DNA of 64,000 nucleotides from Thalassobaculum sp. (GCF_040219215.1 NZ_JAVJSX010000024.1:32403-96402); one strand, 5' to 3'. Counted from the stretch's first letter, positions 2,451-29,544 are shown. The notes: generated by a model from the sequence alone, not told the origin. Program-made: numbers and translations.

Positions 2451-3065
2451 TTACTCCGAGAAATCGAGGTAGCCGCGCTCGGTCACCACGCCGTCCAGGC
2501 GGGCATCCTCCGGTCCGGCCGGCACCGCGGTGACCTCCTGGTCCGCATAGGCGACACCAATTGCCTGGACCGCGAACCGGCCGCGCAGAGCCGCCAGCGT
2601 GCGATCATAGAAGCCGCCTCCATAACCCAGGCGTCGGCCAGCGCGATCGAAAGCCACCATCGGTACCAGCAGGAGCTGCGGTTCGACCACGTCCATGTCC
2701 TCGGACGGATGGAGCGTACCGTACGGACCGTCGTCGAGAGGTTCATCGCTCTCCCAGGCGCGGAACACCAGGGGTTGCCCCGGGGCGGTGACCACCGGCA
2801 ACGCGATTCGACAGCCGCGGGCCGACAGGGCTTCCAGGGTCGAGCGGGGGTCCAACTCGTCGCGCATCGGCCAGTATCCGGCCACCACCGTTCCCGAGCT
2901 CGGCGCAAACGACGCTGCGATCAGCGACGCAACCCGGGATCCGGCATCGGGCACCGCCGCCGCAATCTCGGCCCGCCGCTTCAGCAGCGGCGTGCGCAGA
3001 GCGGTCTTGGCGGCCCGCAACTCGTCCAGGTCGATATAGGCCTCAGCCTCGTCGCAATGAGTCAT
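2451..3065 (-). CDS. 5-formyltetrahydrofolate cyclo-ligase
   Basis: 204 aa. GYWPMRDELDP and GYGGGFYDRTLA motifs. Lies downstream of zapA as in the E. coli zapA-ssrS-ygfA locus. Confidence 0.85.
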   Translation of the reverse strand: MTHCDEAEAYIDLDELRAAKTALRTPLLKRRAEIAAAVPDAGSRVASLIAASFAPSSGTVVAGYWPMRDELDPRSTLEALSARGCRIALPVVTAPGQPLVFRAWESDEPLDDGPYGTLHPSEDMDVVEPQLLLVPMVAFDRAGRRLGYGGGFYDRTLAALRGRFAVQAIGVAYADQEVTAVPAGPEDARLDGVVTERGYLDFSE

Positions 3066-22796: not shown

Positions 22797-23258
22797 ATGA
22801 CCAGCAAACCGATCATCCGGGATGTCCGGAAGGCCGATTTCGAGCAGTGGCAGGCCCTGTGGGCCGGGTACAACGCCTTCTACAAGCGCACCGGCCCCAC
22901 AGCGGTCTCCGATGAGGTCACGCGAACCACCTGGGCGCGTTTCTTCGACGCGTACGAGCCGATGCACGCCATGGTCGCCGAGCATGACGGCCGCCTGCTT
23001 GGCCTCGTGCACTACATCTACCACCGCAACACCACGATGCTCGGCCCGGCCTGCTACCTGCAGGACCTGTTCACGGCACCGGACGCCCGCGGCCACGGGG
23101 TCGGCCGCGCCCTGATCGAAGCGGTGTACGACCGCGCCGCCGCGGCCGGCTCGCCCCGGGTCTACTGGAACACCCAGGAGAACAACGACACCGCCCGAAA
23201 GCTCTACGACCAGGTGGCCGACCTGACGGACTTCCTGCTGTACCGGAAGACAATTTAA
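22797..23258 (+). CDS. GNAT family N-acetyltransferase
   Basis: 153 aa. ...LQDLFTAPDARGHGVGRALIEAVYDRAAAAG is acetyl-CoA binding motif A. Confidence 0.85.
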   Translation: MTSKPIIRDVRKADFEQWQALWAGYNAFYKRTGPTAVSDEVTRTTWARFFDAYEPMHAMVAEHDGRLLGLVHYIYHRNTTMLGPACYLQDLFTAPDARGHGVGRALIEAVYDRAAAAGSPRVYWNTQENNDTARKLYDQVADLTDFLLYRKTI

Positions 23259-24330
23259 GAGCGGGACCCAGATGAATCCGGTCTTGGTCCAGCGTTCAAC
23301 AAACGCCGATTAACCGCAACGGTCCTTTTGGGGTTGTCATTTGCTGATGTAGCGTCGACACGGCACGACATGCTCGGACAGTTTGGGATTGGCCAGACAG
23401 AAACTGACTATGTGATAATCACAGTTCAGACAGTTATTTCTGCTCCCCCGAAACGCAGGTCGACTTTATCGGCCCGCTCCGAAGCGTGCATTAGAACGGG
23501 ATCTCGTCGTCAAGAGACGCCGGCTCTTGTGGCGAGGGCAATGGTTCGTGAGTACGAGGCGGCATCAGTTGCCGGACTTCATGGTTTTCGATCATTCGAC
23601 TCGCCGCGTCTCGATCTTGCTCTTCTTTAGCTTGGCCAACTGTCTCTTCAATCTTGTTAACCAGCTCACGAACTGCACTTGCGGCTCCACCGACATCTGC
23701 AATGGCACCTGCGACTGCAAGTGTGACCACGCCCACCGCAATGAATGTTAAATTGCGGGAATCAAGATCACTCTCGAATTTGTCAACTTGCCTGATGAGT
23801 TTATCGATTCGAGCTGGCGGCAAATTGAGTTTACGAACTTCTTCACGAAGATGAATTGTGAGCGTCCGAAGTCGATCGCGTGTCGCTCCTTCTAAAAATA
23901 TCGCTGTTCGGAGTTTGCGATCTGCTCCTTCCAACATAAGTTGCATCGTATAAAAGCTGAGGTCAGACACAAAATCATCAAAAGCGTGATCGTTCCAATT
24001 GCTTCGACGAGGCATTTCGATGTTGGAAATAGGTACAATATTCAAATATTTTGCCGCAGAAACCACTGAAGTCATATAACGCAGTCGAGCATCTTGAACA
24101 ACACCCCACTCTTCTTCATTACTGATTTGCTCATAGTACCGTTTTCGACAAATTTGCTCTATCTGGACAAATCGCTCCCGTGGATTCTCCGGTAGATCTT
24201 CTATTTCTTCCTGTGTGATAAGCAAATCCATAGAAATGCCTCCGCCAAGCGATCCGCTGAAATTACCACACAGTAGGTCTTTGAAAACCTTTTACCACCA
24301 AAACGGAGTGCCGGTGGTGGTATGCTGCCC
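23259..24330. other. AT-richer single-gene islet between two GC-rich core genes
   Basis: Composition shifts abruptly after the GNAT stop (23258) and returns at the SDR stop (24331). Codons of the enclosed gene mostly end in A/T, unlike its neighbours. No tRNA, integrase or clear direct repeats were seen. Confidence 0.6.
23491..24231 (-). CDS. Orphan hypothetical protein: helical N-domain, glycine-zipper-like hydrophobic segment, Pro-rich linker and an SSB-like C-terminal tip (LDDEIPF)
   Basis: 246-aa uninterrupted ORF in the AT-rich islet. It ends ...MPPRTHEPLPSPQEPASLDDEIPF*. Hydrophobic segment LTFIAVGVVTLAVAGAIADVGGAASAV spans residues 161-187. No family recognised. Confidence 0.75.
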   Translation of the reverse strand: MDLLITQEEIEDLPENPRERFVQIEQICRKRYYEQISNEEEWGVVQDARLRYMTSVVSAAKYLNIVPISNIEMPRRSNWNDHAFDDFVSDLSFYTMQLMLEGADRKLRTAIFLEGATRDRLRTLTIHLREEVRKLNLPPARIDKLIRQVDKFESDLDSRNLTFIAVGVVTLAVAGAIADVGGAASAVRELVNKIEETVGQAKEEQDRDAASRMIENHEVRQLMPPRTHEPLPSPQEPASLDDEIPF

Positions 24331-25116: not shown

Positions 25117-27011
25117 CCCTTCTGCGGATAGCCGACGGTCTGCAGCGACTGGGCGATCTCGCCCAGGATCGCCGGGTCGTCGATGGTTGCCGGGGCGGCC
25201 ACGTCCTGGCCGTCGGCGATCTTCTGCATGGTGCGGCGCAGGATCTTGCCCGAGCGGGTCTTCGGCAGGCGCTGGACCACCGTCGCCACCTTGAACGCGG
25301 CGACCGGACCGATACGCTCGCGCACCATCGTCACCACCTCGGCCACGATCTGCTCGTGCGGCTTGTTGACCCCGTCCTTCAGCACCAGGAAGCCGAGCGG
25401 CACCTGGCCCTTGAGCGCGTCGGCCACCCCGATCACCGCGCATTCCGCGACGTCCGGGTGGTTGGCCAGCACCTCCTCCATCCCGCCGGTCGACAGCCGG
25501 TGTCCGGCGACGTTGATGATGTCGTCGGTGCGGGTCATGACGTGCAGGTAGCCGTCGTCGTCGATCACCCCGGCATCGCCGGTCTGGTAGAAACCGGGAT
25601 ACTCGGTCATGTAGCTGGTCACGAACCGGTCGTCGTTGTTCCACAAGGTCGACAGGGCGCCCGGCGGCAGCGGCAGCTTGATCGAGATGGCGCCGATCTC
25701 GTTGGGCTTCACCGCCGAACCGTCGGGTGCCAGCACCTGGACGTCCCAGCCCGGCACCGGATGGGTCGGCGAGCCCGGCTTGTACGGCAGTTCCTCGATG
25801 CCCAGGCAGTTGGAGACGATCGGCCAGCCGGTCTCGGTCTGCCACCAGTGGTCGACGGTCGGAACCTTCAACTTGTCCTGGCACCACTTCAGGGTGTCGG
25901 GATCGCAGCGCTCGCCGGCCAGGAACTGGGCCTTGAAGTTCGACATGTCGTACTTGGCCAGCAGCTTGCCGTCCGGATCCTCCTTCTTGATGGCGCGGAT
26001 CGCGGTCGGCGCGGTGAACATCACCTTGACCTTGTGGTCGGCGATCACCCGCCAGAACGCACCTGCATCCGGCGTACCGACCGGCTTGCCCTCGTACAGC
26101 ACGGTGGTGCAGCCATGGAACAGCGGCGCGTAGACGATGTAGGAATGACCGACCACCCAGCCGACGTCGGACGCCGCCCAGTACACGTCGCCGGGGTCGA
26201 CGTCGTAGATGTTCTTCATCGACCACTTCAGCGCGACCAGGTGGCCGCCGGTCGGTCGCACCACGCCCTTCGGCTGACCGGTGGTGCCGGAGGTGTACAG
26301 GATGTAGGCCGGATCGGTCGCCTTGACCGGCACGCAGCCGGCAGGCGGGGCAGCAGCTTCCGCGTCCTCCCACAGCACATCGCGGCCCGGCGCAAGCTCG
26401 GCTTCGACCTGCGGGCGCTGCTTGATCACGCAATGCTGCGGCTTGTGGGCCGCCAGTTCGATCGCCCGGTCGAGCAGCGGCTTGTAGGCCAGCACCCGCT
26501 GGCCCTCGACTCCGCAGGACGCCGACACGATGACCTTCGGCGTGGCATCGTCGATCCGGGTCGCCAGTTCCTTGGCGGCAAACCCGCCGAACACCACGGA
26601 ATGCACGGCACCGATCCGCACGGTCGCCAGCATCGCCACCAGCGCCTCGGGAATCATCGGCATGTACAGGATCACCCGGTCGCCGTAACCGACGCCGAGC
26701 CCGCGCAGGGCGCCGGCGAACCGGGCGATCCGCTCCTGCATCTCGCGGTAGGTGTAGGTGGCGACCGTGCCGGTGACCGGGCTGTCGTGGATCAGCGCCG
26801 GCTGCTCGCCACGCCCCGCCTCCACATGGCGGTCGATCGCGTTGTAGCAGGTGTTGGTCTCGCCGCCGACGAACCAGCGCGAGAACGGCGGACGGGAGTC
26901 GTCGACGACCTGGTCCCAACGTCTGGTCCAGGCCACGTCCTCCGCGGCCTCGGCCCAGAACGCCGTCGGATCCGCCATAGAGCGGCGGTAGACCTCGTGG
27001 AAACGGCCCAT
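25113..27011 (-). CDS. prpE: Propionate--CoA ligase / acetyl-CoA synthetase family
   Basis: 632 aa. ...PAYILYTSGTTGQPKGVV... AMP-binding motif, ...YYQTGD..., and a length and N-terminus (FWAEAAEDVAW...) typical of PrpE/Acs. Substrate assignment is tentative. Confidence 0.8.
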   Translation of the reverse strand: MGRFHEVYRRSMADPTAFWAEAAEDVAWTRRWDQVVDDSRPPFSRWFVGGETNTCYNAIDRHVEAGRGEQPALIHDSPVTGTVATYTYREMQERIARFAGALRGLGVGYGDRVILYMPMIPEALVAMLATVRIGAVHSVVFGGFAAKELATRIDDATPKVIVSASCGVEGQRVLAYKPLLDRAIELAAHKPQHCVIKQRPQVEAELAPGRDVLWEDAEAAAPPAGCVPVKATDPAYILYTSGTTGQPKGVVRPTGGHLVALKWSMKNIYDVDPGDVYWAASDVGWVVGHSYIVYAPLFHGCTTVLYEGKPVGTPDAGAFWRVIADHKVKVMFTAPTAIRAIKKEDPDGKLLAKYDMSNFKAQFLAGERCDPDTLKWCQDKLKVPTVDHWWQTETGWPIVSNCLGIEELPYKPGSPTHPVPGWDVQVLAPDGSAVKPNEIGAISIKLPLPPGALSTLWNNDDRFVTSYMTEYPGFYQTGDAGVIDDDGYLHVMTRTDDIINVAGHRLSTGGMEEVLANHPDVAECAVIGVADALKGQVPLGFLVLKDGVNKPHEQIVAEVVTMVRERIGPVAAFKVATVVQRLPKTRSGKILRRTMQKIADGQDVAAPATIDDPAILGEIAQSLQTVGYPQKG

Positions 27012-27654
27012 GTTTCCTCCCCTGTTCTCGTCGCGGCCTTAACACGACCACGATCCTCATTGGTCCGATCCTGATGGAGTCCGGGCCAGATGTCAGCAGG
27101 GTGGCGAGCCGGCAAGAGTGCCGATCACATCCGGATCGGCTTGCCGAGGTCGATGCGGTTCCTGTTCATGAAGGGTCAGATCCGCCTTCCGGTCGTCGGT
27201 CGGAGCGCTTGTCACGTTGGGGGTGGCGCAGCGGCTATATACATGGAGCGTGCCCGCGGCGCCCTCAAGGGAGCCGAAGGCAAACGTCTGACCTATCGAC
27301 GGACTGGTCTCGGGGCATAACAGCAGCGGGCGAATCACAGATCAAAAGTTAAAAAAAACTGGTCGAGTCGCTCTTACGCTGGGACCACCATCGCGAGCAG
27401 CGACGCAAGCGATAGTGGCTCTGCGCCTTCGTGTGAGGAAGATTTAGATTAAATGCTTGACGACAGTACGGCAAATCCGCCGAATCGTAAGATTGACCAA
27501 AGCGGACACCGGGGCCTGCCAGCCCCGGGCCGCCGGTTCCTAAACGGTCGGCCGTCCGGGAACATGCTCTTGAGAAGCGACAGTGACTTTCTATTGAGTC
27601 GCAAGCAAAGTCAATTGGACGGCCCAGTTTCAAGCCCATGAAAGGGTTAGTCAC

Positions 27655-27924
27655 ATGGCAGTCTATTTAATCACCTACGACCTGAATAACGAGACCGTGC
27701 GCCCGAAGATCGTCAAGGACATTAAGGCGTATGACAACTGGGCGTGCCTGTCCGAATCGTCATATGCCGTTGTCTCCGACGGGACGCCCGAAGCCGTCTA
27801 CAACTACCTGTCCAAGCATCTCGACGGTGACGACACTCTCTATGTGATCAGCCTTCGGCGACCGTATTCCGGGCAAGGCTCGAAGGCTGTGAACGACTGG
27901 CTCGACACCAACCTTCAGTGGTGA
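27655..27924 (+). CDS. Orphan Cas2-like small protein (ferredoxin-fold pattern), function unknown
   Basis: 89 aa, MAVYLITYDLNNETVRPKIVKDIKAYDNWACLSESSYAVVSDGTPEAVYNYLSKHLDGDDTLYVISL.... The beta-alpha-beta-beta-alpha-beta pattern and the N-terminal YxxxYD(I/L/V) strand with Asp9 resemble Cas2. G/C-ending codons support coding. Confidence 0.6.
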   Translation: MAVYLITYDLNNETVRPKIVKDIKAYDNWACLSESSYAVVSDGTPEAVYNYLSKHLDGDDTLYVISLRRPYSGQGSKAVNDWLDTNLQW

Positions 27925-28082
27925 ACCGCACCGAAGCCTGCGCCGTCAATCGGCGCCTCACCTCGGCAACCTGACCCGACGTGTCGGGCTGGAGCACAAG
28001 GCGATCATCCTCAAGCGCAACGCGCATTGTGGCGGTCCCGGATGAGATCGCTAAGCCTCGGTCAGCGCAAGCTGGCCGAGGT

Positions 28083-28229
28083 CTACTTTTCGCGACGCTC
28101 CTGGACCTTCGGAGGATGCTTTGGTTCTTCGTCCTTATGCGGCTTCAGCGTGGTCCGCAACAGGTTTCTGCCCACCTTCTTGAACCGAGGATCGTCCTCG
28201 GCCCGCTTGTCGTCCTTGGAGTCAGTCAT
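28083..28229 (-). CDS. Hypothetical 48-aa highly charged peptide
   Basis: MTDSKDDKRAEDDPRFKKVGRNLLRTTLKPHKDEEPKHPPKVQERREK. Strong G/C third-position bias, whereas the same-region plus-frame extension is Ser/Arg junk. Its ATG (28229-28227) overlaps the HEPN-like ATG (28228-28230) within CATG. Confidence 0.4.
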   Translation of the reverse strand: MTDSKDDKRAEDDPRFKKVGRNLLRTTLKPHKDEEPKHPPKVQERREK

Positions 28230-28761
28230 GAACGGGCGAATCCCCGGTGACGTTGTTGAAGCTCTATGCGGCGCTGTCGGCCATGTGGTCGTAAACTGGG
28301 CGTTTGTTGAGGTCGCAGTGGATACATGCATTGCGACGATCTACCAAAACGCCGGGGGCAAACACATAGAACGAGAGATCCCAAGCGCTATCGGTCGCAA
28401 GGTCAAATTTCTTCGTCGGTGCATCAAGCAGATCGGCGCGCTGTCACTATATCGCACGGAAGGCGACCAACTGCTCAATAGAGTGAACGCTGTGAAGGAC
28501 ACGCGGCACATGCTCGTGCACGGATGCGTCACCGGCTACGAGCGAGAAAATCACGCATTCACGTTTGCCAAGATGGACACCATCAACAACCGGACCCGGC
28601 ACAAACTCAATCCATCAAAGTTTACCGCACAGCAGATTCTCGATGACGGAACCGAGTGTCAGACCTTGGCCCGCGACCTGACTCGCTTCAGCCAACGCCT
28701 GTTCGAGGCTTTCCCTAGTGAGGATGAATTGAACAACGGCCCTAGCACCATCGGAGGCTAG
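28228..28761 (+). CDS. Hypothetical protein with a HEPN-like R-x4-H motif (candidate HEPN ribonuclease)
   Basis: 177 aa from the ATG at 28228 (GGAG at 28218-28221). It is predicted helical with ...LLNRVNAVKDTRHMLVHGCV..., where R93-x4-H98-G matches the HEPN signature R[NHD]xxxH(G). The upstream 67 codons of ORF 28027..28761 look non-coding. Confidence 0.6.
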   Translation: MNGRIPGDVVEALCGAVGHVVVNWAFVEVAVDTCIATIYQNAGGKHIEREIPSAIGRKVKFLRRCIKQIGALSLYRTEGDQLLNRVNAVKDTRHMLVHGCVTGYERENHAFTFAKMDTINNRTRHKLNPSKFTAQQILDDGTECQTLARDLTRFSQRLFEAFPSEDELNNGPSTIGG

Positions 28762-28928
28762 TGCGTCGCTCAATTTCCATTGTTCAGGGTCGACGCAACG
28801 TCCCGTTCAAGTGTTGCTAGTACACGGATTTGTCGGTCTAACCGAATCTTGAAAACTCTCTTTGTTCATTACAGAGATTCCGATGGCGCGAAATCAAGCG
28901 CCCTCTGGCGCTGCTTCACGCCAACGCC

Positions 28929-29123
28929 CTAGTCATGGCGACAAAAGAACCCCTTAACGGAATCGCGACGGTACATCAGCGTCGGGATCGAGATCTCGTC
29001 AGTCTCTTCTTTTGCATCAGGTTCAAAATTGCTTTGACTGATTTGCGCCGCGCTCGCCGGGACCGGGCCGCCGGTCAGCAGGAAGGGTGCGAAAGCCAGG
29101 AACGAGAGAGGTTTCTTCAGCAT
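28929..29123 (-). CDS. Possible small secreted protein
   Basis: 64 aa from the internal ATG: MLKKPLSFLAFAPFLLTGGPVPASA|AQISQSNFEPDAKEETDE.... Signal-peptide-like N-terminus with an ASA cleavage motif. Weak support otherwise. Confidence 0.35.
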   Translation of the reverse strand: MLKKPLSFLAFAPFLLTGGPVPASAAQISQSNFEPDAKEETDEISIPTLMYRRDSVKGFFCRHD

Positions 29124-29544
29124 GGGAGCGCTCCTCGATTTGAACCGTCGCAGCATGCGCTGCGCGCACGTGTCACTCTTCAGATGGCGCTCTTTTTATC
29201 GGTAATTTCGAAACATTTTCTTTCCAATCAATATTAAAAATTTGTAAAATTGGCTTATTGCAAGTTTAGAGTGTCGCTCTTCAAATCGACCGCGTAGTCG
29301 AGACACAGAATTGATGGCCGATTTCGGTCGCGTCGGTTGATGGTGCGAAAGCCGGATCGACACGCTTCGCCAGATGCCCGGTCGACCACCGGCACGGCCG
29401 CCGGTCAGATGATCGTGCGCAACGCGACGCCGCCGCTCTGATATGCGGAAAGCCACTTCAAGGCAGTCCTGGTCTGGCCCTCGTATCGGCCCCGGGTGAT
29501 GGTGCGCGGGTGGTTTCTCCGCCCTTAACGGTGAAGCGACAGCC

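Follow-up and report, generated by a model that had tools for sequence, protein, structure and literature searches.

The 177-residue open reading frame (ORF) described here lies on the plus strand of a 64,000-nucleotide stretch of DNA from Thalassobaculum sp. (GCF_040219215.1 NZ_JAVJSX010000024.1:32403-96402); 'the window' means this whole stretch, and positions are counted from its first letter. The ORF starts with an ATG at 28228, its stop codon ends at 28761, and it sits in a low-GC islet (about 27000-29500; GC 0.51-0.60 versus 0.65-0.70 in the flanks) that holds, in order, a transposase remnant, a Cas2-like ORF, a hairpin, a small peptide gene and the intact 177-residue gene (Table 1). A first-pass annotation, made from the sequence alone, had proposed a HEPN-type RNase effector and had placed both the ORF and the residues R93 and H98 (R93 to H98, nucleotides 28504-28521) exactly where we find them. 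The decisive context, which that annotation missed, is the insertion sequence (IS) in which the gene sits, and this setting is our main result. We read the 177-residue gene as the cargo of an IS1595-family transporter IS, belonging to a HEPN-like family and present in the window as part of a relic, and we give this reading a probability of about 0.6.

The ORF is a genuine gene and belongs to a large, mostly metagenomic protein family that has no name, and gene callers predict the identical protein on two further public contigs. An in-frame TTG at 28027 would extend it to 244 residues; this stretch is merely open as the antisense of the peptide gene (the minus-strand ORF opposite it is lysine- and glutamate-rich) and is unconserved in the closest relative (locus L008), so the 177-residue start was kept. 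A 59-residue minus-strand ORF (27851-28027) is without a conserved counterpart in the family loci by tblastn and was also set aside.

Table 1. Features of the islet, in window coordinates.
Feature	Position	Strand	Basis
IS1595-family transposase 3' remnant, last 22-26 codons, ...GAEGKRLTYRRTG...	27246..27323	+	tblastn
Cas2-like ORF, 89 aa; variable middle slot between transposase and peptide	27655..27924	+	weak Cas2 matches
GC-rich, terminator-like hairpin with a trailing T-run; lies between Cas2-like ORF and cargo gene and abuts the peptide stop codon	28055..28082	+	consensus scan
Peptide gene, 48 aa, acidic N-half and basic C-half, IS-associated 'LRRMLNTPPKPHKP' family, core degraded (LLRTTLKPHK)	28083..28229	-	profile search
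CATG shared by the cargo ATG (+) and the peptide ATG (-), 2-nt overlap	28227..28230	.	direct sequence reading
Cargo gene, 177 aa, uncharacterised family, HEPN-like predicted RNase	28228..28761	+	ORF reading, profile search, alignment, AlphaFold model
Conserved helix-1 motif G18-x5-W24-x3-E28	28279..28311	+	141-member alignment
Putative catalytic motif R93-H94-M-L-V-H98-G99, end of helix 70-98	28504..28524	+	conservation in 141 members; AlphaFold model
Possible degenerate right inverted repeat, weak, not established	28856..28882	-	position-weight matrix, 8.2 bits versus 25-39

The setting becomes clear from related loci, selected either through the 177-residue family or through the peptide. An IS1595-family transposase gene was found by tblastn upstream of the family gene, in the same orientation, in L008, L012, L013 and L014. 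In L012, an 8-bp duplication flanks perfect inverted repeats of 25 nt (846-870 and 3037-3061), which span 2.2 kb and four genes, namely the transposase, a 92-residue ORF, a 46-residue minus-strand ORF and the family gene. L008, L012 and L013 are complete elements with the family gene as cargo, and complete elements with other cargo were found via the peptide in Thalassobaculum (L015), Croceibacterium aestuarii (L016), Phreatobacter (L017) and at L019. The inverted-repeat consensus of these seven elements is GGCAnnTnTATACTTGAC, and the transposase is intact in each, with its Zn_ribbon_IS1595 (PF12760) and DDE_Tnp_IS1595 (PF12762) domains. The 8-bp target duplications are CAAAAACT (L012), GCAGGGAA (L013), GAATAGAT(C) (L008), ACTAAATC (L015), TAGATATT (L016), CGAAATTC (L017) and GAATCCCA (L019). 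Right-end repeats also lie about 100 nt downstream of the family gene in L003 and L014. The elements run from the left inverted repeat (IR-L) through a DDE transposase gene, a variable small ORF, a peptide gene of about 47 residues on the opposite strand and the cargo gene to the right inverted repeat (IR-R). The IS1595 and IS66 families are known to include transporter ISs, which carry passenger genes inside the IS (PMC3129680).

Two of these loci show further features around the element. In L013 (5400-5900) a tandem duplication takes in the IS left end and the beginning of the transposase gene, leaving two identical ends about 395 nt apart. In L017 (2430-4321) a gene for a D12-class adenine methyltransferase and a 336-residue gene lie just beyond the cargo-side IS end; they may form a restriction-modification pair, which would suggest insertion into a defence region.

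The window copy is a fossil of such an element, with the transposase cut down, the ends eroded, the peptide core degraded and the cargo ORF intact. Its transposase remnant is matched by the C-terminal ends only of six IS1595 transposases from related loci (63-83% identity by tblastn). No further transposase fragment and no second copy of the element was found in the window, and no 8-bp target duplication could be identified there. The candidate right repeat listed in Table 1 was scored with a position-weight matrix of 14 real ends; only four window positions score that high, the AT-rich composition inflates such scores, and the outer end of the candidate lies 121 nt past the stop codon, compared with 122-163 nt in intact elements. 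As recognizable repeats are absent, the case for an IS origin of the window copy is built on the transposase remnant, the peptide and the order of the genes. A 64-residue minus-strand ORF (28932-29123) with a signal-peptide-like N-terminus, predicted as a gene on two further contigs as well, lies in AT-rich sequence immediately past the putative right end.

A small minus-strand ORF stands head-to-head with the family gene in eight of the ten family loci and is missing beside the members in L004 and L006. A search profile made from the eight head-to-head peptides retrieved 503 relatives (median 47 residues), none of them named and none with a Pfam domain. Their consensus is M...ReDEVLRRMLnTPPKPHKPkk, with PPKP present in 110 of 114, and the two halves carry opposite charges (-1.1 for the N-half and +5.4 for the C-half). 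The tblastn search of plasmids gave no match to the peptide, the query having probably been masked as low complexity. Between L008 and L015, codons 1-40 of the peptide gene differ by five synonymous and no non-synonymous changes, compared with 56 and 18, respectively, in the transposase gene; because all of the changes are synonymous, the peptide can be taken as a selected coding gene.

The start codons of the peptide and cargo genes overlap in a CATG in nine of 12 loci, whatever the cargo family. Because of this overlap, the ribosome-binding site of either gene falls within the antisense of the other's first codons: the Shine-Dalgarno-like GGAG of the cargo gene is the antisense of peptide codons 3-5. 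Each mRNA would thus have a 5' leader that is complementary to its counterpart. Judged by this geometry, the overlapping starts might provide reciprocal antisense or transcriptional-interference control. An Rfam scan of the low-GC islet matched no family.

Comparison of L008 with L015 shows how the cargo changes. At the DNA level the IR-L and transposase are 85% identical and the peptide gene 94% identical, while the middle ORF and the cargo gene have no homology, the break lying no more than 3 nt from the ATG of the cargo gene. A tblastn search with the window protein does not detect the cargo proteins of L015, L016 and L017, yet all three have a G-x5-[W/Y/M]-x3-E motif in helix 1 and an R-[N/H/D]-x3-H motif, and hhalign of the family against the L016 cargo aligns helix 1 only (probability 72%, E 3.4e-5). 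L019 (2590-4977) is a complete element with the conserved peptide, a DUF1508 middle ORF and a 274-residue cargo protein that has neither motif. The cargo slot is thus exchangeable: besides the 177-residue family, one unrelated protein and at least three further R-x4-H families occupy it. The L019 locus is present on 22 contigs. A related IS1595 element without the peptide, L020 (2429-5034; Roseomonas marmotae plasmid NZ_CP061092.1), encloses between its ends a 266-residue hypothetical gene, a PIN-domain gene and a 61-residue ORF.

The pattern invites a bolder and quite doubtful proposal, that this IS1595 subgroup is a cargo-exchange platform: the CATG-sharing peptide gene would be a fixed anchor for both regulation and recombination, precisely at whose shared start RNase-type toxin or defence genes (several HEPN-like families and others) are swapped, and the peptide or its antisense mRNA would be a universal controller that ties cargo expression to the state of the element. 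If true, integron cassettes or defence-island hotspots would have a minimal counterpart here, of the size of an IS.

The protein itself has escaped the usual catalogues: alone, it gives zero matches in Pfam, PADLOC and NCBIfam profile scans, and a word-index search for homologs yielded no more than three relatives (40-45% identity). An exhaustive HMMER search with a profile of these four sequences returned 1233 representative relatives at E<=1e-3 and 635 at E<=1e-10, nearly all of 160-185 residues; the word-index search using the family profile recovered just seven proteins. The family occurs at one locus among 185,579 isolate species representatives and at one locus in a metagenome scan, and was found neither on viral contigs nor, by tblastn with the 177-residue protein, on any of 72,556 plasmids.

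In an alignment of 141 diverged members R93 is invariant (141/141), H98 is kept in 139 and G99 in 124, as the annotation had expected of the residue after the histidine. Position 94 is H in 77, N in 27 and D in 26 members (130/141 together). This conservation makes R-x4-H the core of the family and no chance pattern match. In the helix-1 motif, G18 is kept in 138 and W24 in 133 members, and position 28 is E in 129 and D in 12. Position 28, in the first long helix, is therefore acidic in 141/141, and is followed by D/N/E at +4. Further conserved polar residues are K58, K/R115, D117 and H125, and the window copy retains every residue conserved in the family. A distant member (26% identity) lies outside any IS in L006 (3232-5821), directly 3' of genes for an NpmA-like methyltransferase and a DUF371/TP_methylase protein; this setting places the family also in a non-mobile, possibly RNA-modification-related context.

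An AlphaFold model built on a 117-sequence alignment is of high confidence, with a predicted local distance difference test score (pLDDT) of 95.8 and a predicted template-modelling score (pTM) of 0.88. It has four long helices (residues 7-41, 55-68, 70-98 and 134-161), the second and third of which are one residue apart. The motif is the C-terminal end of the third, 70-98, which bears out its earlier placement at the end of a long helix. The same annotation had taken the protein to be all-helical; the model instead puts three β-strands (100-105, 110-119 and 124-133) between the motif and the last long helix. Residues 70-161 (window 28435-28710) have an αβββα topology, and four of the six best Foldseek matches in the PDB are double-stranded RNA-binding domains (dsRBDs; E about 0.5, non-significant). 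The modelled C-terminal half may thus hint at an RNA-binding module around the catalytic motif.

The published description of the HEPN superfamily has the residue after the conserved R as "mostly N, D or H" and the motif at the end of helix 3, with a β-hairpin right after the motif in Csx1 (PMC3710099). The residue after R93 and the Csx1-like insertion fit this description, as would the helix-end motif if the four long helices of the model form the up-and-down bundle of HEPN domains. The Rx4-6H pattern is present with four-residue spacing (R in 141/141 and H in 139/141), and N, D or H follows the R in 130/141. A Pfam scan of 117 members gave only sub-threshold matches (best E-values 0.0075-0.11, under the gathering scores). 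HEPN_RiboL-PSP was matched by three members and DUF4209 by two, and HEPN_Cthe2314, DUF3644, pEK499_p136 and HEPN_Apea by one each; DUF4209 and DUF3644 are counted among the HEPN families (PMC3710099). HEPN families thus make up six of the 48 weakly matched families, with nine member-hits, and include the two most-hit families. The matched stretch covers the motif in the three weak hits that were inspected. PHROGs, PADLOC and NCBIfam scans of the 117 members gave noise only, and the PDB sequences, whether searched with profiles or with the protein by itself, yielded chance matches only (prefoldin, eL36 and phycoerythrin). The HEPN proposal of the first-pass annotation therefore holds in part: R-[H/N/D]-x3-H-G is the most conserved feature of the family and the weak Pfam matches favour HEPN, but nothing is significant. 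We regard the protein, with moderate confidence, as HEPN-like, membership of the superfamily being plausible and not proven. It would be an atypical HEPN-like protein, since an inserted three-stranded sheet separates the motif from the last helix, and is probably a metal-independent endoribonuclease acting through the R/H site.

If so, the cargo could be a toxin or an RNase of the abortive-infection (Abi) type, which would pay for the upkeep of the element by addiction or by defending the host. HEPN Abi proteins and the toxin-antitoxin (TA) pairs of Tn3-family transposons offer an analogy, on which a toxin, Abi or addiction function that helps the element to be kept seems most likely.

Two of the competing explanations concern the partner of the 177-residue protein. 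The first-pass annotation had suggested the Cas2-like protein, and the 89-residue ORF does lie 300 nt upstream of the cargo gene on the same strand, with weak matches to Cas2 (PADLOC Cas2_II, E 3.5e-4; Pfam Cas2, E 0.033, below threshold). That the cargo is an effector partnered with this protein, in a CRISPR-ancillary or Cas2-linked system, is nevertheless scarcely credible and as good as refuted. In tblastn searches over ten independent family loci the 89-residue protein was found only at the window's own locus, so that the two genes are not seen together elsewhere, and homologs are absent from the peptide-selected loci too; the search for a relative of solved structure found none. The window contains no CRISPR array, the terminator-like hairpin lies between both genes, and other elements fill the same slot with unrelated ORFs of 68-164 residues, often zinc-ribbon proteins and also DUF1508 and membrane proteins. 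No MNT gene is present at the locus, as had been noted before, and the 177-residue gene stands outside any Cas2, MNT or CRISPR system. The second suggested partner, the 48-residue peptide, is by contrast a conserved neighbour, present beside the 177-residue gene in 8/10 loci. In a classical TA pair the 177-residue HEPN toxin would be neutralized by binding of the peptide as its dedicated antitoxin, the IS association being secondary. A real, selected coding gene, adjacent in most family loci in a tight and conserved head-to-head arrangement, would suit this, as would the small size and bipolar charge, which befit an unstructured inhibitor; Tn3-family transposons also hold TA pairs, including one HEPN-MNT pair (PMC7157771). 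We still consider such a pair improbable, because the peptide gene keeps 94% DNA identity while the gene facing it is swapped for unrelated proteins, the facing protein in L019 lacks any R-x4-H motif, two family members (L004 and L006) do without the peptide, and in the window the peptide core is degraded and the supposed toxin intact. A type II antitoxin is co-transcribed with its toxin and co-varies with it; here the genes are divergent and form no operon, and the small gene is constant across cargo where it is present. Its constancy beside different cargo, and its absence from L004 and L006, suggest that the peptide is more likely to be an IS backbone gene or a general regulator than a dedicated antitoxin.

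Several observations weigh against a HEPN-like cargo of a transporter IS. Three of the ten family loci (L004, L005 and L006) are without IS features, two of these being short contigs. No inverted repeats are recognizable in the window, where the best candidates reach 8-10 bits compared with 25-39 bits for real ends, and a promoter scan predicted no sigma-70-like promoter at the peptide/cargo junction. On the protein side, no match in Pfam, NCBIfam or PADLOC attains a curated threshold, and what points to HEPN is confined to the motif and to sub-threshold profile matches. Against a pEK499_p136 protein checked as authentic at E 1e-49, hhalign aligned 18 motif columns only, with 0.2% probability. 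The conserved acidic residue is part of E-x3-D in the first helix, the usual HEPN arrangement being E-x3-[K/R] in the second. Foldseek searches of the PDB with two models gave no significant match (best E 0.29), and with the good model HEPN entries were absent from the top 50; a match to AbiV (E 0.5, TM 0.15) appeared with the poorer model only. The search of BFVD also gave nothing significant, the best hit being an unnamed protein at E 0.03. The annotation had held that a lack of HEPN similarity in profile and structure searches, coupled with a lack of activity dependent on R93/H98, would tell against it; the former is what we find, with no significant HEPN profile or PDB structure match. These results lead to the alternative that the R/H site is part of some other fold, possibly a new one, with another activity; the protein could then regulate the IS by binding nucleic acid, or be an enzyme for a different substrate that contains phosphate. 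The absence of a significant PDB neighbour for so confident a model, the sub-threshold profile matches and insignificant hhalign result, and the weak dsRBD-like matches (E about 0.5) of the αβββα C-terminal half would all accord with this, and K58, K/R115, D117 and H125 suggest a site more elaborate than the plain HEPN dyad. It is rather doubtful all the same, given that the motif matches HEPN in having H/N/D next to its invariant R, a spacing of four residues, a G after the H and a place at the end of a helix, and that the weak Pfam matches are strongly enriched for HEPN (6/48 families). Foldseek is, moreover, insensitive for helical bundles that carry large insertions.

We therefore retain the reading of a HEPN-like cargo gene in a relic of an IS1595-family transporter IS. 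If the family is indeed of HEPN-type RNases, it is a large one (>1200 representative clusters), almost wholly metagenomic, that domain and defence catalogues have missed, and elements of 2.2-2.6 kb in Alphaproteobacteria would carry RNase-type toxin or defence genes in an exchangeable slot beside a strongly conserved peptide gene. This raises the questions of why ISs carry passengers, whether these stabilize the element or protect the host, and how a head-to-head pair with overlapping starts is controlled. For the Thalassobaculum genome, the locus is best described as a fossil IS with intact cargo, and as neither a CRISPR- nor a Cas2-related system. Elsewhere in the window there is a second low-GC patch (23250-24250; GC 0.43-0.53 versus about 0.65 in the flanks), with a minus-strand ORF (23491-24231) of 246 residues that has no Pfam match and was possibly horizontally acquired.

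By description, the closest kin of the 177-residue family are the HEPN RNases of stand-alone Abi-type and mobile-element families (RiboL-PSP-HEPN, pEK499_p136, Cthe_2314, DUF4209/C6orf70 and integron-cassette HEPN; Anantharaman et al. 2013, PMC3710099). Both have R-[N/D/H]-x3-H as the most conserved feature, at the end of a long helix, with a conserved and possibly equivalent acidic residue upstream; both are of about 170 residues and are carried on mobile DNA, and an insertion after the motif is common to Csx1 and the present family. Unlike these RNases, the 177-residue family has no significant profile or structure match, has a three-stranded sheet after the motif, has its acidic residue (E-x3-D) in helix 1, is not represented in Pfam, NCBIfam or PADLOC, and has no MNT, restriction-modification or CRISPR neighbour.

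The overlapping starts recall type I TA loci such as SymE/SymR, in which divergent transcripts overlap at their 5' ends and are complementary across the translation-initiation region. The head-to-head gene geometry is shared; unlike in such loci, both partners at the CATG encode conserved proteins, and there is no Rfam match. In Tn3-family transposons, TA pairs with RNase-type toxins lie beside the transposition genes and have been proposed to stabilize the element (Lima-Mendez et al. 2020, PMC7157771). RNase-type toxin genes (PIN, RelE/ParE-like and one HEPN) inside a transposable element are the common ground; the Tn3-family pairs differ in being canonical co-transcribed type II pairs with recognizable antitoxins in large replicative transposons, whereas the IS1595 elements here are of 2.2-2.6 kb, with a small gene that is divergent and constant across unrelated cargo. 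With the published IS1595 transporter ISs (PMC3129680; TnCentral preprint 10.1101/2021.05.26.445724), the elements share an N-terminal zinc-ribbon DDE transposase, short terminal repeats, 8-bp duplications and passengers inside. The conserved head-to-head peptide gene, the CATG and the exchangeable RNase-type slot do not appear in these two descriptions, and part of this architecture may already be on record in ISfinder or in the 2009 IS1595 paper (Siguier, Gagnevin and Chandler, cited in PMC3129680). The findings thus extend two known kinds, the HEPN-like RNases and the transporter ISs.
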